Positions 55 through 44,565 of a DNA stretch of 47,882 bases are shown here, in pieces (within the stretch, counting starts at the first letter, position 1; each line of letters opens with the position of its first letter). This DNA is from a virus (taxonomy: Duplodnaviria > Heunggongvirae > Uroviricota > Caudoviricetes), in IMG/VR virus record IMGVR_UViG_2897375277_000002. The stretch is one strand, 5' to 3'. Below the pieces are notes generated by a model, which worked only from the letters and a program-made list of their open reading frames with translations, was not told the DNA's origin and did not search any database. Position numbers and translations under genes: made by a program.

Positions 55-639
55 TTACTCCCTGACAGGGTTCGTAGGCCACTCAATATCAGGTGCAGTT
101 GATGTATCAACACGGTTCAGCAACACCCGATACTTTTTCCAGGCTTCCAGCAATGAGGTTTCTTCCTCCGTTGCGATTTCCAGATCTACAGCATCCTGAA
201 GTGGCGCAATATGCTCACTGGCTACCTGCATCAGGCTGTTTTTTGTTTCTTCCGCCTCCCGGATCCGGAATAGTTTTTCTGCTTCTGCATCTTTCACCCA
301 GGCTGTGCCGTTCCACTTCTGATATTCCCCTTCCGGCGATAACCAGGTGACATTTTCCGGTAACGGACCGAGTTCAGAAATAAATAACGCGTCCCCTGAT
401 GCCACGTCATAAACTGTTTTACCCCGATGGTCTTCAACAAGATGCCACGATGCATCATCACTGTTGAAAACAGCCACGAAGCCAGCCGGAATATCTGGCG
501 GTGCAATATCGGTACTGTTTGCTGGCAGACCTGTATGAGGCGGAATGTATGCGTCACCTTCACCAATAAATTCATTAGTTCCGGCCAGCAGATTATAAAT
601 TGTTATGGTCCGTGGTTGTTCACTCATTCTGAATGCCAT
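55..639 (-). CDS. tfa: tail fiber assembly protein
   Basis: 194-aa ORF directly downstream of stf; translation [12 protein letters not shown]... matches lambda-type Tfa as I recall it; ATG at 637-639 (cat on + strand). Confidence 0.85.
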
Positions 640-35428: not shown

Positions 35429-36955
35429 TTAGAAATAAATCTCACCATCAACCATATATTTGAGAGCACTTATCGCCTGCTGGGCGGATATTACTTTCAT
35501 TAAAGGGTAGTGTTTAAAAACAATGCCATTCATAAAATAGATATCACAGGTTTTATTATCCGTATTAATTATGATTTTTTCGAATGTTTTATAGGCAAGT
35601 GTACGGCATAACTCTCGTCCATTTTTACTGGTTAAGTCAATAGCATAAAAATCACTGAATGAATTTACACCTTTACTCTTCAAAGTTTTCAATGATACCG
35701 AAGCCCTTCGTAATTCCTTATCTAATAGTCTTATTTTCTCTACTATAGCGGTAACTTCAGGCGCGACAGACAATGCAACGATTAAATTATTAATTTTCAT
35801 CTGAAGCTCAATAATTTTTAACTCTAAAGTTTCATTAGCATCTTTCTTGTTTTCAACTGGTTGAATTTTGCTACAATTAAAAAGCAATTCATTAATGATA
35901 TTATAATCAACCAAATCTCTTTTTATTGATGGCCTGTCACATCGATGTAATCTTCTCATCGGACAAACATAATAGCCATGCAAACTTCCAGATACCGCAT
36001 GAACAATCATGGTATTACCACAAGCCTCACACTTCATAACTGTTCGAAGTAGATTTATTAGCATAGGATTCTTGCTACTATTGCTAATACCAAAAGGTGC
36101 CAACCGAATTTCCTGTACAGCGTAAAACAAATCATCTGATATGACTCTGGGATAATAGCCAGCGATTTCACTTATCCCTTTCCCTCTTGCACGATATGAA
36201 GGTACGCATATACCTATCAGAGCTTTATTCGCTAATAATTTTTCAATTACAGAAGGTCCCCATGCACTTTCTTTTCCTGAGAAATTCTTTACAGCATGAT
36301 CATTTAAATACTTGGCTATTGCATTCAATGAGCGCCTTTCCATCCTGAGTTTAAAAATTAGCTCAATAGTTTTCACCCTGTCGGGGTCTGGAACAAAAGC
36401 CGTTCTTTTGTCATCTAAGGAGAGCCATCTCGGACAAGACGCCGTCATAATCGTACCTGATTCCAGTGCATCCTGCCGTTTTTTCTTCCATGATAATTTA
36501 ACCCGACTTGACTTTATCTCGCTTTCTTCATTTGCCCTTTGTGCTATAAGTATGGCTTTTATTAATGAATATGGCTCATTCAAAGAGTCAATATTATAGA
36601 CTGTATTGTCGCAAAGAGTTATAACATCAATACCGTGATTCAAAATCAATTTCAGACGTTCAATCGCTTCACCGACTTTTTCTCTTGAAAGTCTGTCCAG
36701 ACTTTCAACTAACAATGTAGTTCCTGGCAATATATAACCATGCTCTATAGCATCTAAAAATTCCGAAAAAGCTCCTGATTGTGCATGCTTTCCTTTGAAT
36801 GCACTTAATCCTAAATCTTCATATGTTATGGTATCAAGATAATAATCACTATTTACCTTTAACCATTCAGCAATAAGTCTTCTCTGTCGGTTTAATGAGT
36901 CACCAGACATCTGACCTGGTGATGAAAATCGCATATATGCTATGGCTTTTTTCAT
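35429..36955 (-). CDS. ybcK: large serine recombinase (YbcK-like)
   Basis: 508-aa ORF; N-terminal resolvase-like catalytic domain (AIAYMRFSSPGQ... with Ser) plus large C-terminal domain with Cys cluster; AT-rich. Confidence 0.8.
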   Translation of the reverse strand: MKKAIAYMRFSSPGQMSGDSLNRQRRLIAEWLKVNSDYYLDTITYEDLGLSAFKGKHAQSGAFSEFLDAIEHGYILPGTTLLVESLDRLSREKVGEAIERLKLILNHGIDVITLCDNTVYNIDSLNEPYSLIKAILIAQRANEESEIKSSRVKLSWKKKRQDALESGTIMTASCPRWLSLDDKRTAFVPDPDRVKTIELIFKLRMERRSLNAIAKYLNDHAVKNFSGKESAWGPSVIEKLLANKALIGICVPSYRARGKGISEIAGYYPRVISDDLFYAVQEIRLAPFGISNSSKNPMLINLLRTVMKCEACGNTMIVHAVSGSLHGYYVCPMRRLHRCDRPSIKRDLVDYNIINELLFNCSKIQPVENKKDANETLELKIIELQMKINNLIVALSVAPEVTAIVEKIRLLDKELRRASVSLKTLKSKGVNSFSDFYAIDLTSKNGRELCRTLAYKTFEKIIINTDNKTCDIYFMNGIVFKHYPLMKVISAQQAISALKYMVDGEIYF

Positions 36956-38610: not shown

Positions 38611-39536
38611 AGCTCCACCCCGTAAATCCAGTCAGTGTTCGTCAGGTCGAGTTTTGGTTTGCCGGCTGTCACGCCAGCCTGTTGCTTGTTTCGGTTGATT
38701 TCGAGCTGGGTCCACTTGTCGCGGAGTTTGGCCGGACTTAGCACGTTACCGGACCAGAAGTTGTCCTGGCATGCCCAGCGGAACAGCACGCACATGTCGC
38801 GGTGGTTACGTCCGTCACGTTCACGCATCAGGCGGATATCGTTAGCCCACCCTGCAAAATTCGGTTTTCTGGCTGATGGCGCGATGGTCTTCACCATGTC
38901 AAACATCCACTCTGCGGCGGTCAGGTCTTCTGCTGTCCCCCACTTGCTGCCGCTCTGAATTGCAGCATCCGGTTTCACCACAGGAAGATCGTTTTCTGAC
39001 TGGTCAGAGGATTCGCCAGAATTCTCTGACGAAAAAGGTTTTATATTGTCTTTTGTTAGTTTGTCTTTTGTGTTTACCTGATTCGGGTAAACGTCTTTAC
39101 CTGATTTGGGTAAACTTTTCTTACCTGATTCAGGTAAATTTACCTCTTTCAGGTAAACTTTATTTTTCTTACCTGATTCGGGTAATGTTGACCATTCACT
39201 GACCACATTATTAATGCCGATATTCCGCCCGCTCTGAATAAAAATCCCACGCTTTACCAGAACACTTTTTGCAGCAGAACACTTGTGCGGCAATATCCCG
39301 GTCAACTCGGAAAGTTGCTCGTTGCTCACCCAATCCAGTTTTTTATTAAAGCCATATGTTTTGCGCATGACAGCCAGAAAGACCAGAAGCTGGTGCTGTG
39401 TTAATCCGGCCAGCATCACAGCTTCCAGCAACTCATTTGCAATGCGCGTATAACCATCATCGAGATCTGCCACGCGCGGCTCCTTTTGTGCCACATCCGG
39501 CACTGGAAAATTGAATATCTCAGCAGTGTTTGCCAT
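38607..39536 (-). CDS. O: replication initiator protein O
   Basis: Start set at ATG 39536 (strong SD GGGAGGAATT) giving MANTAEIFNFPVPDVAQKEPRVADLDDGYTRIANELLEA...; ori iterons lie inside the coding sequence; ORF track extends 30 codons upstream. Confidence 0.9.
   Translation of the reverse strand: MANTAEIFNFPVPDVAQKEPRVADLDDGYTRIANELLEAVMLAGLTQHQLLVFLAVMRKTYGFNKKLDWVSNEQLSELTGILPHKCSAAKSVLVKRGIFIQSGRNIGINNVVSEWSTLPESGKKNKVYLKEVNLPESGKKSLPKSGKDVYPNQVNTKDKLTKDNIKPFSSENSGESSDQSENDLPVVKPDAAIQSGSKWGTAEDLTAAEWMFDMVKTIAPSARKPNFAGWANDIRLMRERDGRNHRDMCVLFRWACQDNFWSGNVLSPAKLRDKWTQLEINRNKQQAGVTAGKPKLDLTNTDWIYGVEL
39074..39185. repeat. replication origin iterons: five copies of an approximately 17-bp palindromic unit (TTACCTGATTCGGGTAA-like)
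   Basis: Copies at about 39074, 39097, 39121, 39140 and 39169, each an internal inverted repeat (TTACC...GGTAA); an AT-rich tract at 39030-39073 follows on the O-downstream side, as in ori-lambda. Confidence 0.85.
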
Positions 39537-39622: not shown

Positions 39623-39805
39623 TCATATTGCCCCCAGCATGGTGGTGACCATCGCCATCAGTGGACCAGCCAGATCCGGGTCCACACGAAACATCGACAC
39701 AATGCCTTCACTCATCTCCTTCAGTTTCTGGTGGCGTGGTGCGTTGAGAATGACAGCCTGTTTTGCCTCACTGAGTTCCTTTTCCATTTCAGCCAGCCGA
39801 GCCAT
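39623..39805 (-). CDS. hypothetical small protein between cII-position gene and O
   Basis: 60-aa ORF with ATG start; no family recognised. Confidence 0.35.
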   Translation of the reverse strand: MARLAEMEKELSEAKQAVILNAPRHQKLKEMSEGIVSMFRVDPDLAGPLMAMVTTMLGAI

Positions 39806-39835
39806 GAAGCTATCCTGCTCAACCAGGTGGCCGCG

Positions 39836-40168
39836 CTATTCCAGCGGTAGTACCGCCAGAATTGCCGGGGTCAGTTCACGCACGTTATTTCGGTATTTTT
39901 CAGAATCGAATTTGTTATCGAGGAAGCGGAACAGCTTCTGGCGTGCACGGCTGACATCATCAGGAAAATCGATGGTGCCGCCGCCCTGCTCCCGATACTC
40001 ATTCACAATGAGTGCGGCAACAACATCCTGATTATCTGCAGCCGACCAGGCGCGAACGGCATCACGGATTTTTTCGTGGCCTAGCGCCTGTTTTGTTTGA
40101 GAACGATTTATCACCGCAGTCGGGCTAAATCCGCTAGTCTGTTGGTATGTAAGTGGTTGCATAGTCAT
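39836..40168 (-). CDS. hypothetical protein at the cII position (possible CII-like regulator)
   Basis: 110-aa ORF downstream of cro and upstream of O; no similarity to lambda CII that I can recognise. Confidence 0.5.
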   Translation of the reverse strand: MTMQPLTYQQTSGFSPTAVINRSQTKQALGHEKIRDAVRAWSAADNQDVVAALIVNEYREQGGGTIDFPDDVSRARQKLFRFLDNKFDSEKYRNNVRELTPAILAVLPLE

Positions 40169-40192
40169 TGCCTTATCAGTTAACGCCGCAGA

Positions 40193-40420
40193 TTAGGCGG
40201 CAGAATTACTCGCGTTAAACAATGGTGCGAGGTCGGGACGAATATCTGCTGGTTTAATCTTTCCACCAGTGGCTGAGACAATTTTCATTACATAGCGGGC
40301 ATCAATTCCGCCACCGTGTAGCCAACGCCAAACAGTGGGCTGGGCTACACCGCATAGATCTGCCAGTCGTTTTTGACTACCTGTAATACTGATTGCGAGT
40401 TGAATGGTTTGATTTGTCAT
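40193..40420 (-). CDS. cro: Cro-like HTH repressor
   Basis: 75-aa ORF MTNQTIQLAISITGSQKRLADLCGVAQPTVWRWLHGG... (HTH); divergent from cI across an operator-containing spacer. Confidence 0.8.
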   Translation of the reverse strand: MTNQTIQLAISITGSQKRLADLCGVAQPTVWRWLHGGGIDARYVMKIVSATGGKIKPADIRPDLAPLFNASNSAA

Positions 40421-40530
40421 TATTAATTCCCATTGGTATTACAATGAATAAATAATAGCAATGCGTATTAATCATAACAATAGCAAAACGTGTTTTGACC
40501 ATCAATACGCAAGCGTATAAATTAAAACTT
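40421..40530. promoter_or_regulatory. OR region with putative PR (minus strand: -35 TTGTTA at 40475-40480, 17-nt spacer, -10 TATTAT at 40452-40457) and AATAGCAA(T) operator motifs
   Basis: Hexamers and motif copies (40454-40462, 40479-40486) read directly; the same motif recurs in the putative OL. Confidence 0.55.
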
Positions 40531-41223
40531 ATGAAAAAAGAAACTCTTGCTGATCGCTTAAACCTAGCGATGGAACAATCTGGAATGTCTCAAGGCGCTC
40601 TTGCAAAGGCGTCTGGCGTAGCTCAACCCACAATCTGGAGACTGACAAGCGGCAACGCGCGCGGCTCAACAAAAATTGTTGAAATAGCTAATGCATTGGG
40701 TGTTCGAACAGAGTGGCTCTCATCAGGCATAGGCCCGATGAGAAATGACGGTCAACAATTAGGGAAGCCTACTGCCAACCATCCCAAATACTTCAAGATT
40801 GACGTTCTTGATATAGAAGTGAGTGCCGGGCCGGGAGTCATCAACCGTGAGTTTGTAGAAGTTCTACGCTCGGTTGAGTACTCGTTTGACGATGCTCGTC
40901 ACATGTTCGATGGTAGGAAGGCAGAAAATATCCGCATCATTAACGTACGCGGTGACAGCATGTCAGGAACGATTGAACCTGGTGATCTTCTATTCGTTGA
41001 TATCACGGTTAAATCTTTCGACGGTGATGGTATCTATGCGTTTCTGTACGACGACACAGCCCATGTAAAGCGCCTGCAAATGATGAAGGATAAGCTGCTG
41101 GTTATCTCTGATAACAAAAGCTACTCACCGTGGGACCCGATCGAGAAAGATGAGATGAACCGGGTATTTATCTTCGGGAAAGTTATTGGGAGCATGCCGC
41201 AGACGTATAGGAAGCATGGATAG
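40531..41223 (+). CDS. cI: CI-type repressor (N-terminal HTH, C-terminal S24 LexA-like peptidase domain)
   Basis: MKKETLADRLNLAMEQSGMSQGALAKASGVAQPTIWRL... with C-terminal ...GDSMSGTIEPGDLLFVD... (Ser-Lys dyad type). ORF track starts at a TTG at 40495; ATG 40531 preferred, likely leaderless. Confidence 0.85.
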   Translation: MKKETLADRLNLAMEQSGMSQGALAKASGVAQPTIWRLTSGNARGSTKIVEIANALGVRTEWLSSGIGPMRNDGQQLGKPTANHPKYFKIDVLDIEVSAGPGVINREFVEVLRSVEYSFDDARHMFDGRKAENIRIINVRGDSMSGTIEPGDLLFVDITVKSFDGDGIYAFLYDDTAHVKRLQMMKDKLLVISDNKSYSPWDPIEKDEMNRVFIFGKVIGSMPQTYRKHG

Positions 41224-41303
41224 TACCAATTAAAAATTATCAACCGGGCATTGTGCTCATTCAGTAAAACAACTTAATTATTCATTTTAGAATGGAGAAC
41301 TTA

Positions 41304-42365
41304 ATGGATACTTTAAAATATGAGAAATTCTCTGATTTTGATCACAATGACCCATTTTTTGACTCTTTAAAAAAAGATTATAAAGAGTTTCCTCTTTGGT
41401 TAGAAAAAAAAGCCAGAGAAGGAGAATCAGCTTATGTGCTCTATGATGACAAGCATAAAATCGAAGGTTTTATGTATCTAAAAGAAAATGATGATGCAAA
41501 TGACATTAATCCAGCGCTCCCACCAGGACGTCATCTAAAGATAGGAACATTCAAATTTGAATCTAAAGGCACCCTTCGCGGACAACGATTTCTAAAAAAA
41601 GCGTTTGACCATGCATTTTCATCAAAATCTGATGATATTTATGTTACTGTTTTCGACAAACACGTCCATCTAATAAAACTTTTCCAAACGTACGGATTTT
41701 ACATTCATGGTGAAAAAGAAACACATAACGGGAAAGAGTTTGTATATGCGAGGTCTTTGCATGAGCCTTATGGTGATATTTTATTAGATTACCCTCGAAT
41801 AATGACATCAAGGGCCAACAAATATTTACTGGCGATTTATCCCGAATATCACACTAGACTATTCCCTGATTCAAAACTTGTAAATGAATCACCAGATATT
41901 GTCAAAGATATATCCCATGCTAACAGCATTCATAAAATTTACATATGTGGAATGCGTTCTGTGATGGGAATGAAAAGAGGAGATATCATTGTCATCTATA
42001 GAACCGGAGACAAAAAAGGGCCAGCTCGCTATCGTTCTGTAGCCAGTACATTATGTGTAGTTGAGAGCGTAAAAAATATTTCTGAATTTTTAAGCGAAGA
42101 TAGTTTTGTAGACTATTGTATTCGTTTTAGCGTATTTTCTGAAGATGAACTCAGAAAAATCTATAAAGAACGTCGATACCCTTTCATTATAAGATTCACA
42201 TACAATCTGTCTTTGCCAAAGAGACCCAATCGTGCTATTTTAATAGATCATGTGGGGCTAAATGGTTCGCGTGCATTCCGATGGAGTCACTTTAAACTCA
42301 CAAATGAGCAGTTCTTAAAGATCATCGAGTTAGGCAAGATAAATGAAAGTTTTATTATCCATTAA
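41304..42365 (+). CDS. GNAT-like acetyltransferase domain protein with uncharacterised C-terminal domain (rex-position cargo gene 1)
   Basis: ORF 41292..42365; ATG at 41304 has an SD (GGAGAA). Segment LRGQRFLKKAFDHAF...DDIYVTVFDKHVHLIKLFQTYGFYIHGE resembles GNAT motifs A/B; AT-rich; no lambda counterpart. Confidence 0.6.
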   Translation: MDTLKYEKFSDFDHNDPFFDSLKKDYKEFPLWLEKKAREGESAYVLYDDKHKIEGFMYLKENDDANDINPALPPGRHLKIGTFKFESKGTLRGQRFLKKAFDHAFSSKSDDIYVTVFDKHVHLIKLFQTYGFYIHGEKETHNGKEFVYARSLHEPYGDILLDYPRIMTSRANKYLLAIYPEYHTRLFPDSKLVNESPDIVKDISHANSIHKIYICGMRSVMGMKRGDIIVIYRTGDKKGPARYRSVASTLCVVESVKNISEFLSEDSFVDYCIRFSVFSEDELRKIYKERRYPFIIRFTYNLSLPKRPNRAILIDHVGLNGSRAFRWSHFKLTNEQFLKIIELGKINESFIIH

Positions 42366-42720
42366 GCCTGAGTTTGCAGAAAAAATATTGAACGGAACAA
42401 AGCGGTTCGAGTTTCGTAAAGGTATATTCAAAAATCCGCAAATTAGCACCGTTGTTATTTATGCCACGATGCCATTAGGTAAAGTTGTTGGTCAATTCCG
42501 TATTGAATCAATACTAAGTGACGAACCGGAATCTCTTTGGAAAAAGACGGAAAAACACGCAGGTATTTCTAAGCAATTTTATGACTCATATTATTCAGGT
42601 AGAGAAAAGGCCTACGCAATAAAAATTGGTGAAGTGGAAAGATATAAAGAACCAATTCCTATCTCTGCTCTAGGTAGTAATATTAAGCCACCACAATCAT
42701 ATCTTTACCTACCTGCGTAA
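42343..42720 (+). CDS. ASCH-domain (PUA-like) protein (rex-position cargo gene 2)
   Basis: 125-aa ORF MKVLLSIKPEFAEKILNGTKRFEFRKG... with the ASCH N-terminal signature; overlaps gene 1 by 23 nt. Confidence 0.65.
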   Translation: MKVLLSIKPEFAEKILNGTKRFEFRKGIFKNPQISTVVIYATMPLGKVVGQFRIESILSDEPESLWKKTEKHAGISKQFYDSYYSGREKAYAIKIGEVERYKEPIPISALGSNIKPPQSYLYLPA

Positions 42721-42724
42721 GAAT

Positions 42725-42751
42725 CCCGGCCACCGTGCCGGGTTTTCTTTT
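42725..42751 (+). terminator. intrinsic terminator ending the cI / cargo operon
   Basis: CCCGGC-CACCGT-GCCGGG hairpin followed by TTTTCTTTT immediately after the ASCH gene stop. Confidence 0.7.
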
Positions 42752-42837
42752 GTCCCCTCATCACACAAACCGTTCGAAAAACCACCACATCCTCCCTTCA
42801 GTTATCGCTATGCGATGCAAGTCACAAAATTAATTCT

Positions 42838-42918
42838 TTTTGCTATCAAACAGTTAATATCAAAACACATCAATCAATAGCAATAAGTATTGATACAGCC
42901 AATAGCAATAGCTATTAT
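42838..42918 (+). promoter_or_regulatory. putative OL/PL: -35 TTGATA (42890-42895), 17-nt spacer, -10 TATTAT (42913-42918), with CAATAGCAAT operator copies at 42875-42884 and 42900-42909
   Basis: Consensus-like hexamers with 17-nt spacing on the + strand pointing toward gam/bet/exo; the operator motif is shared with OR. Confidence 0.55.
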
Positions 42919-42991
42919 CACCATGTCGCAACAACACAACGATACGGCAATCACCTGATTCACCGTTGCGATGACCGCTTAGATCCGCAGC

Positions 42992-43402
42992 TTGAATTTC
43001 AGCAGGCTCCGGGGAGTGCGAGGGGTGAAGCGGACGCGTGAACGTCGGTGTGACCAGCTGAAATCAACTCAACACCTCATACCTCAGTCGCTTCAACGAG
43101 GCGGCTTAGTTATGACAACCGGCGGCCATCCACCGCCTGAATACGCGCAGAAGTCTCTATATGTTCAGCAGCCCAGCTTACGGGCAGGAGTTTTTATGGT
43201 TCATCAACATTACGGAACGCAGACCGTTAATCGCGGTGCGGTCATGCCAGGAATGCTGGTCAAACACAAAGATGGTACCTGGACTGCATCAGCTAATTTA
43301 CGCGGACGGCTTTATCTGCATCGCGGCATCGAGCGCACTTATACCCGTGATTTGCTCGTGGAAGTTTTTCTCGACGGACGCGGTAACGGCCTGAATCGCT
43401 AA
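42992..43402 (+). CDS. hypothetical early-left protein with Arg-rich N-terminus (possible N/Nun-like antiterminator; start uncertain)
   Basis: ORF begins at TTG 42992; alternative in-frame GTG at 43016/43025 (…VKRTRERR…) or ATG at 43112. First ORF after the putative PL; no confident family match. Confidence 0.35.
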
Positions 43403-43477
43403 TCCCCTTTCCTGTTTTCCTAATCAGCCTGGCATTTCGCGGGCGATATTTTCACAGCCATTTTCAGGAGTTCAGCC

Positions 43478-43774
43478 ATGAACGCTTATTACATTCAGGA
43501 TCGTCTTGAGGCTCAGAGCTGGGCGCGTCACTACCAGCAGATCGCCCGTGAAGAGAAAGAGGCAGAACTGGCAGACGACATGGAAAAAGGCCTGCCCCAG
43601 CACCTGTTTGAATCGCTATGCATCGATCATTTGCAACGCCACGGGGCCAGCAAAAAAGCCATTACCCGTGCGTTTGATGACGATGTTGGGTTTCAGGAGC
43701 GCATGGCAGAACACATCCGGTACATGGTTGAAACCATTGCTCACCACCAGGTTGATATTGATTCAGAGGTATAA
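43478..43774 (+). CDS. gam: Gam (RecBCD inhibitor), short form
   Basis: 98-aa [42 protein letters not shown]... matching lambda GamS; the in-frame upstream region has no start before a stop. Confidence 0.9.
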
Positions 43775-43779
43775 AACGG

Positions 43780-44565
43780 ATGAGTACAGCACTCGCAACG
43801 CTGGCAGGGAAGCTGGCTGAACGTGTCGGCATGGATTCTGTCGACCCACAGGAACTGATCACCACTCTTCGCCAGACGGCATTTAAAGGTGATGCCAGCG
43901 ATGCGCAGTTCATCGCATTGCTGATCGTCGCCAACCAGTACGGCCTTAATCCGTGGACGAAAGAAATTTACGCCTTCCCTGATAAGCAGAACGGCATTGT
44001 TCCGGTGGTGGGCGTTGATGGCTGGTCCCGCATCATCAATGAAAACCAGCAGTTTGATGGCATGGACTTTGAGCAGGACAATGAATCCTGTACATGCCGG
44101 ATTTACCGCAAGGACCGTAATCATCCGATCTGCGTTACCGAATGGATGGATGAATGCCGCCGCGAACCATTCAAAACCCGCGAAGGCAGAGAAATCACGG
44201 GGCCGTGGCAGTCGCATCCCAAACGGATGTTACGGCATAAAGCCATGATTCAGTGTGCCCGTCTGGCCTTCGGATTTGCTGGTATCTATGACAAGGATGA
44301 AGCCGAGCGCATTGTCGAAAATACTGCATACACTGCAGAACGTCAGCCAGAACGCGACATCACTCCGGTTAACGATGAAACCATGCAGGAGATTAACACT
44401 CTGCTGATCGCCCTGGATAAAACATGGGATGACGACTTATTGCCGCTCTGTTCCCAGATATTTCGCCGCGACATTCGCGCATCGTCAGAACTGACACAGG
44501 CCGAAGCAGTGAAAGCTCTTGGATTCCTGAAACAGAAAGCCACTGAGCAGAAGGTGGCAGCATGA
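43780..44565 (+). CDS. bet: Bet single-strand annealing protein (RecT family)
   Basis: 261-aa [40 protein letters not shown]... matching lambda Bet. Confidence 0.95.

Follow-up and report, generated by a model that had tools for sequence, protein, structure and literature searches.

A probable repressor-controlled left operator and promoter (OL/PL) in a lambdoid prophage, assigned by comparison with OR/PR and with lambda

Does the short non-coding stretch between the repressor operon and kil of a lambdoid prophage hold its left operator and early-left promoter (OL/PL), and which repressor specificity would it serve? We addressed this question in a window of 47,882 nucleotides (the whole stretch of viral DNA that was analysed), in which a sequence-only reading had proposed an OL/PL built from a near-consensus promoter, two tandem copies of a 10-mer and an inverted TTGCTAT. 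Our analysis indicates that positions 42830-42925 very probably form the repressor-controlled OL/PL of a lambda-like temperate phage. The support for the identity first proposed is comparative, and comes from the position of the element, the motif and geometry that it shares with OR/PR, its linkage to cI, its co-variation with the repressor and its alignment to lambda. Read in this manner, the element would be an ordinary lambda-like left early promoter of textbook layout, overlapped by candidate repressor sites; the assignments are useful for annotation and engineering and leave the understanding of lambdoid regulation unchanged.

The locus and its gene order

The window is a lambdoid prophage with 99.8% identity, over 40100-43500, to the Escherichia phages 4A7 and Lambda_4C10 (genus Bievrevirus). 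Its genes and sites follow the order cro, OR, cI, GevT/GevA-like cargo, terminator, OL/PL element, leader and kil-gam-bet-exo (Table 1). Lambda has the same layout of cI, rexAB, terminator, OL/PL and early-left genes, with the window carrying other cargo in place of rexAB. The earlier proposal placed PL downstream of the operon terminator and facing the early-left genes, and this arrangement was confirmed, with kil-gam-bet-exo as the direct targets. The terminator itself is kept in PhiR47_2, PhiR5_1 and Perceval although their cargo differs.

Table 1. Positions of the repressor, operator, promoter and leader features in the window
Feature	Position	Strand	Remarks
cII-like gene	39836-40168	-	YdaT-type by Pfam
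cro-like gene	40193-40420	-	YdaS-type by Pfam
OR	about 40450-40525 (40452..40523)		
PR	-35 at 40475-80; -10 at 40452-57	-	putative
OR1	40454-69		AATAGCAATGCGTATT; candidate operator
OR2	40479-94		AATAGCAAAACGTGTT; candidate operator
OR3	40504-19		AATACGCAAGCGTATA; candidate operator
PRM candidate	-35 TTGACC 40495-500; -10 TAAATT 40518-23	+	17 nt between hexamers
cI repressor gene	40531-41223	+	230 aa; Pfam HTH_3 and Peptidase_S24
Two cargo genes	41292-42720		annotated GevT/GevA in PhiR47_2
Intrinsic terminator	42725-42752	+	closes the cI-cargo operon; 6-bp all-GC stem, then TTTTCTTTT
OL/PL element	about 42830-42925		putative
Distal inverted half-site	42840-42847	-	GATAGCAA
Tentative OL3	42856-42871		AATATCAAAACACATC; weak; 20 bp from OL2; aligns with lambda operator-l3
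OL2	42876-42891		AATAGCAATAAGTATT; OR-derived matrix score 17.9; candidate operator
PL -35 hexamer	42890-42895	+	TTGATA
OL1	42901-42916		AATAGCAATAGCTATT; perfect dyad, 0 mismatches; OR-derived matrix score 18.8; candidate operator
PL -10 hexamer	42913-42918	+	TATTAT; predicted start about 42925
PL leader	42925-43195	+	non-coding, ~270 nt; ends at the kil start codon, 43196
kil	43196-43402		gam, bet and exo further downstream

The two cargo genes encode a 357-aa protein with no Pfam hit and a 125-aa ASCH-domain protein in overlapping reading frames, which the PhiR47_2 annotation names GevT toxin and GevA antitoxin; a literature search returned no paper on GevT/GevA. In relatives, the slot between cI and OL holds HipA/HipD, BstA or other genes. 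The 80-nt junction between the cargo terminator and OL (42750-42829) is conserved across cargo and immunity types, and contains a 13-bp palindrome, ATCGCTATGCGAT, at 42805-17.

Operators and hexamers of PL, read against OR

Direct reading of the sequence bore out TTGATA and TATTAT exactly 17 nt apart on the + strand, as well as the two copies of CAATAGCAAT at 42875-42884 and 42900-42909, which are the only exact copies in the window. The tandem 10-mer is thus present as had been described, but it is not the repeating unit: the real unit is a 16-bp dyad operator, AATAGC-N4-GCTATT, which in the frame of the 434 repressor reads as a 14-bp core, ATAG-N6-CTAT. OL1 spans the promoter spacer and runs four bases into the -10 hexamer, in a geometry that matches OR1 over PR, and OL2, 25 bp from OL1, abuts and overlaps the -35 hexamer. 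Among the three OR sites, the distance from one to the next is again 25 bp. When PL and PR are set out on their sense strands they agree column for column (TTGATA/TTGTTA, a 17-nt spacer, TATTAT/TATTAT), and the earlier claim that the OL architecture mirrors OR held, with the two promoters in exact register and operators at matching positions. At both promoters the right half of O1 (GCTATT) provides the TATT of the -10 hexamer, O1 stops two bases short of the -10 end and O2 abuts the -35 hexamer; at least two candidate dyad operators overlap PL in a register identical to that of OR1 and OR2 over PR.

Taken alone, the PL promoter match does not exceed chance expectation for this AT-rich region. 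Its hexamers, with their 17-nt spacer and 10/12 promoter match, are among the two best in 39800-43800, where 9 promoter-like matches were found against 9.2 expected from shuffles. Motif counts are similarly unexceptional, with four copies of the 8-mer AATAGCAA against 1.9 expected and seven of the 7-mer ATAGCAA against 6.2. These raw motif and promoter counts are not significant, and it is arrangement, conservation and co-variation that carry the case. The four copies of AATAGCAA form two same-strand pairs, each at 25 bp, in both intergenic regions flanking the cI operon; among 1000 Markov simulations of AATAGCAA, two or more close pairs arose in none and one pair in 5. We also built a weight matrix from OR sites only (those of the window phage and its relatives), which hence serves as a non-circular test of OL. 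Across the whole 47.9-kb window, this matrix placed 42901 and 42876 as the top non-OR positions, with the best match outside OR/OL at 12.2.

Additional features were noted on the OR side. Downstream of the PR start, AATTCCCATTGGTATT at 40425-40440 may provide a fourth site for the repressor or for Cro; it falls in the cro 5′ UTR, in the region of the ribosome-binding site. The OR-derived matrix gives this sequence 17.4, more than OR2 and the fifth-best score in the window, and Perceval and Klebsiella phage 6 retain it in part. The -10 hexamer of the PRM candidate ends 7 nt before the cI ATG, which implies that cI mRNA from PRM is leaderless, like that of lambda.

The start of the predicted PL transcript was placed from known relatives. 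In ST104 and BTP1 the homologous -10 hexamer, TATTGT, lies 6 nt before ATCAGCAGGACGC, which is followed by boxA CGCTCTTTAA and then N/24, and lambda has ATCAGCAGGACGC at the equal position. The lambda PL transcript presumably starts at the A of ATCAGCAGGACGC, and the spacing between -10 and ATCAGCAGGACGC in lambda, ST104 and BTP1 places the predicted start of the window transcript near 42925. We considered and rejected a leaderless mini-ORF from ATG 42923, since the ATG is lost (ATA) in many relatives.

Linkage to cI and comparison with known phages

A scan for cI in IMG/VR and GTDB genomes yielded 86 loci, and in about 70 of them, where the flank sufficed, cI is followed by an OL-like segment at a distance of 0.9-2.1 kb. 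The distance from cI to OL takes at least 20 different values and GevTA is present in only 11 loci. We collected 51 distinct OL variants, some of them from Salmonella, Kluyvera, Citrobacter and Raoultella loci with about 70-80% identity. Among the 51, the ATA/TAT half-site cores (in OL2, ATA and ATT cores), the TT of the -35 hexamer and T-A-T-x-x-T of the -10 hexamer (its positions 1-3 and 6) are invariant. The G of the -35 hexamer is kept by at least 85% of the variants, and the non-operator spacer bases 42896-42900 are highly variable. Hexamers and 17-nt spacing of the sigma-70 type are thus kept across diverged lineages.

The OL segment also changes together with the repressor. PhiR47_2 shares GevTA, the terminator, the left junction and the leader with the window, and its cI is identical in the C-terminal domain and differs in the N-terminal helix-turn-helix; here exactly 42829-42925 is replaced by a segment with ACAAC..GTTGT dyads, which also fill its OR. 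The same type-B pairing is found in PhiR5_1, which carries HipA cargo and has ACAAC..GTTGT sites at OR and OL; its cI, too, departs from that of the window in the N-terminal helix-turn-helix and is identical in the C-terminal domain. Conversely, Perceval, ST104 and BTP1 have other cargo, a type-A helix-turn-helix and AATAGC sites at both OR and OL. From these pairings we conclude that the OL type tracks the DNA-binding domain of the repressor and not the cargo or flanks, with AATAGC for type A and ACAAC/GTTGT for type B. The type-B sites (L002 5765-5860 and L096; PhiR47_2, PhiR5_1) read ACAAC-TTTT-GTTGT and related sequences, equal to the 434 consensus ACAA-N6-TTGT, and the type A/B cI pair represents a clean natural domain swap of DNA-binding specificity.

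For lambda, the record NC_001416 annotates operator-l1, -l2 and -l3, overlapping PL, at 35591-35651. No gaps are needed to align lambda and the window with ST104, PhiR47_2, a Kluyvera locus and an L088-type locus from the shared AAAATAAATTCAT junction to the start, which brings the window element into positional register with the annotated OL1-OL3/PL of lambda. Throughout the six sequences TTGA of the -35 hexamer is invariant, with lambda TTGACA aligned to TTGATA and lambda GATACT opposite TATTAT or TATTGT. As in lambda, O1 lies over the spacer and the -10 hexamer, O2 lies at the -35 hexamer and a three-site partner, OR, is found about 2.4 kb away; the operator spacing is nearly alike, at 24 and 20 bp in lambda and 25 and 20 bp in the window. 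In other respects the two differ. The lambda operator, TATCACCGCCAGTGGTA, is unrelated to AATAGC-N4-GCTATT, as is the specificity, and the window repressor has a 434-like (HTH_3) rather than a lambda-like DNA-binding domain. Moreover, the window is without nutL, N and cIII, so that PL leads straight to kil, and it has a weak site 3 and an extra distal half-site.

The closest match of the N-terminal domain of the window cI is to solved 434 repressor domains (E about 1e-5), and its C-terminal domain matches UmuD. In the 434 frame, the operators of the window (ATAG-N6-CTAT) and of 434 (ACAA-N6-TTGT) are both 14-bp dyads in which outer contacts of 4 bp enclose a centre of 6 bp. They differ in the outer contact bases, ATAG or ATAC in the window and ACAA in 434, and the recognition helix of the window repressor reads QPTIWRL instead of QQSIEQL; the relationship is distant. 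DNA recognition thus appears closest to 434, within what is, by alignment, the layout of lambda OL/PL.

By the same comparisons, the nearest relatives of the same predicted specificity are Salmonella BTP1 and ST104. In BTP1, ST104 and SE1 (Salmonella P22-like phages), cI is 85% identical to the window protein with an identical helix-turn-helix, and the operator motif at OR and OL, the -35 TTGATA and the 17-nt spacing are shared; BTP1 likewise carries defence cargo (bstA) between cI and OL. They differ from the window in OL1 (AATACTCAATGCTATT), in the -10 hexamer (TATTGT) and in what follows PL, which in these phages is a lambda-like 5′ leader, boxA and the N/24 antiterminator. RNA-seq of a BTP1 lysogen gives about 152 TPM for cI, 117 for bstA and 13 for N (PMC7067206 supplement), values that are population averages for a phage with high spontaneous induction, and for a relative rather than the window phage. 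The low N level downstream of BTP1's homologous promoter is indirect evidence that fits repression at PL. HK022 is a more distant comparison, alike in its N-less lambdoid early-left operon and in a cI of the same broad family (40% identity), and unlike in its operators (TGAAC-N5-GTTCA) and in having putL at the transcript start and nun downstream, both of which the window lacks. The ST104 record describes its cI as 'similar to HK022', but HK022-type immunity was rejected for the window because cI is only 40% identical and the operators differ.

Our literature search found no paper that prints these operator sequences or describes the immunity type at the operator level, and the repressor specificity seems undescribed at sequence level. 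The immunity type to which the operator and promoter assignments apply is very common: this cI is encoded on at least 508 IMG/VR contigs, and E. coli Bievrevirus phages (4A7, Perceval) share the type with Salmonella BTP1 and ST104. The assignments predict homo- and hetero-immunity, with type A (AATAGC) set against type B (ACAAC), and OL fixes the right-hand boundary of the cI-to-OL cargo slot for defence systems (GevTA, HipA, BstA, RexAB).

In the mechanism that we propose, the sigma-70 promoter PL would drive kil, gam, bet and exo rightward from a start near 42925. In the lysogen, cI dimers would occupy the 16-bp dyads OL1, over the spacer and the -10 hexamer, and OL2, at the -35 hexamer, and would exclude RNA polymerase from PL; binding at the two sites is probably cooperative, given their distance of 25 bp. 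The repressor would also bind OR1-OR3, 2.4 kb off, shutting off PR and regulating its own promoter, and upon induction, RecA-stimulated self-cleavage of cI through its S24 domain would free both promoters. The weak site at 42856-71 and the inverted half-site at 42840-47 could offer the repressor a third or fourth contact point, or else contact IHF. We infer repressor binding, promoter activity, cooperativity and N-independence at PL from the sequence comparisons above.

Alternative readings, upstream sites and the PL leader

Could the repeats instead be chance products of AT-rich sequence, or recombination scars at a mosaic junction, with fortuitous hexamers and early-left genes transcribed from elsewhere? 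Promoter-like matches at chance frequency, 8-mer and 7-mer counts near expectation, and the location of the OL segment between two conserved junction sequences would all suit such an account. It does not explain why the clustering of the motif was not reproduced in 1000 simulations, why hexamers, spacing and half-site cores are conserved in E. coli, Salmonella, Kluyvera, Citrobacter and Raoultella loci where neighbouring bases vary, or why the segment both co-varies with the cI helix-turn-helix and aligns to lambda's annotated OL/PL, and we consider it scarcely credible. A more serious alternative accepts PL and concerns the inverted TTGCTAT upstream. This heptamer is present, one base to the right of where it had first been placed (42840-42846 rather than about 42839-42845), and a single inverted 7-mer would carry no significance on its own; its column pattern, gctATCAa, is conserved across diverged relatives. 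The half-site lies upstream of the position equivalent to lambda OL3 and overlaps an IHF-consensus match, TATCAAACAGTTA, at 42844-42856, so that it could be not an operator but part of an IHF site, TTGCTATCAAACAGTTA, which bends the DNA and modulates PL. The match, about -75 from the start, agrees exactly with WATCAANNNNTTR and is kept in 5/8 diverged lineages, and the full 16-mer at 42832-47 has four mismatches to the operator dyad and falls outside the 15 best positions of the OR-derived matrix. The left half of this 16-mer, AATTC, was rejected as an operator half-site because lambda and the type-B phages have it too, as part of a common junction, which is also in keeping with the IHF account, and IHF is said, in work of 1990 by Giladi and colleagues, to stimulate lambda PL from an upstream site. 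However, ST104/BTP1, L011 and L088-type loci have lost the IHF consensus and yet retain GCTATCA or TTATCA, and at the corresponding position the type-B phages carry a half-site cognate to their own immunity, ACAACCAT, a pattern that points to a contact specific for the immunity type. A purely IHF-related role is thus possible, if somewhat less probable than not, and the inverted TTGCTAT may act as an additional operator contact, as an IHF site or in both roles. The tentative OL3 is weak in the window: the OR-derived matrix has its 15 best positions at 9.3 or more, and 42856-71 is not among them. Better dyads occupy the OL3 position in Kluyvera locus L008 and Raoultella locus L011.

A further alternative leaves OL/PL in place and invokes a cis-acting antitermination RNA of the HK022 put type, rather than N, within the 270-nt leader as a requirement for early-left expression. 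N-less lambdoid phages can use RNA antiterminators just downstream of PL, as HK022 does (PMC9378689), and this precedent favours the idea, as do the lack of an N gene or nut site in the window, the conservation of the leader in both immunity types and a hairpin at 43078-43114 with compensatory changes. No N/nut module of the lambda, P22 or phi80 type is present downstream of PL in the window; between 42925 and 43195 we found no N-like ORF with a coding signature, no boxA/boxB and no nutL, whereas ST104 and BTP1, with the same OL, have boxA and N/24. Against a put-like RNA, neither similarity to HK022 putL nor an Rfam match was found for the leader; no inverted repeat links it to the PR operon, where a putR-like second copy would be expected, and no ~70-nt two-stem RNA with a second copy past PR was found. 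The leader's folding is no better than that of shuffled sequence (z = -0.21), and predictions gave no strong terminator from PL to exo. The hairpin follows a terminator in HK225, and both a terminator and N in phi80, which is the wrong side for antiterminating the terminator in question. The put-like leader RNA was accordingly rejected, and an antitermination requirement of this kind is very unlikely. Given no N gene and no strong leader terminator, PL transcription probably reaches the recombination genes without antitermination, and as the simplest reading we infer that the early operons are independent of N. On the other side of the switch, the cro-cII gap is only 24 nt (within 39836-40420, - strand), which leaves no room for nutR or tR1 and, taken with the missing N, suggests early expression independent of antitermination.

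The non-coding nature of the leader is apparent from the codon positions of variable sites, which number 8/9/7 and 6/4/7 within 42992-43195 against 10/11/39 in kil. With no third-position bias before 43196, we place the kil start there and take the leader as non-coding. Some records annotate ORF 42992-43402 as a long 'Kil'; an N-like arginine-rich peptide from this ORF, whose arginine-rich N-terminus resembles the corresponding motif of N proteins, was rejected on the same ground.

The leader nevertheless contains a long hairpin, CAUACCUCAGUCGCUUC-AAC-GAGGCGGCUUAGUUAUG, in the 43078-43137 region, which buries GAGG and an AUG (43112) and is followed by an invariant 26-nt stretch, ATGACAACCGGCGGCCATCCACCGCC (a 'MTTGGHPPP' mini-frame). 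Four stem pairs of the hairpin (43078-43114) show compensatory changes, and the constraint on the mini-frame looks to be at the RNA/DNA level, since its changes are non-synonymous and without codon bias. HK225, Klebsiella KO-TP1, Enterobacter ENT1 and phi80 have conserved versions of the element, each immediately preceded by an intrinsic terminator. In HK225 and KO-TP1 kil follows shortly after it, in phi80 the element comes after N, and ENT1 carries no annotation. The element may act as a translational or RNA switch for kil.

A broader extension, which we regard as unlikely, is that the whole early programme runs without an antiterminator (no N, nut or put), with OL as a possible four-contact array and a kil switch in the leader. 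If true, OL would comprise OL1, OL2, the weak OL3 and the distal inverted half-site, which lies upstream of the start by about 70-90 bp, and this array, together with the fourth OR-side site in the cro leader (40425-40440), would support a long-range OL-OR loop unlike that of lambda; separately, the hairpin with its 'MTTGGHPPP' mini-frame could be an undescribed translational or RNA switch controlling kil.

Elsewhere in the window, a cluster of short TTTACCTGATTCGGGTAAA-type inverted repeats at 39072-39158, within the O-like replication gene, probably represents origin iterons, and 98-296 (- strand), in the side-tail-fibre/tail-fibre-assembly region of the prophage, gives a strong Rfam match to IS009 (227 bits).
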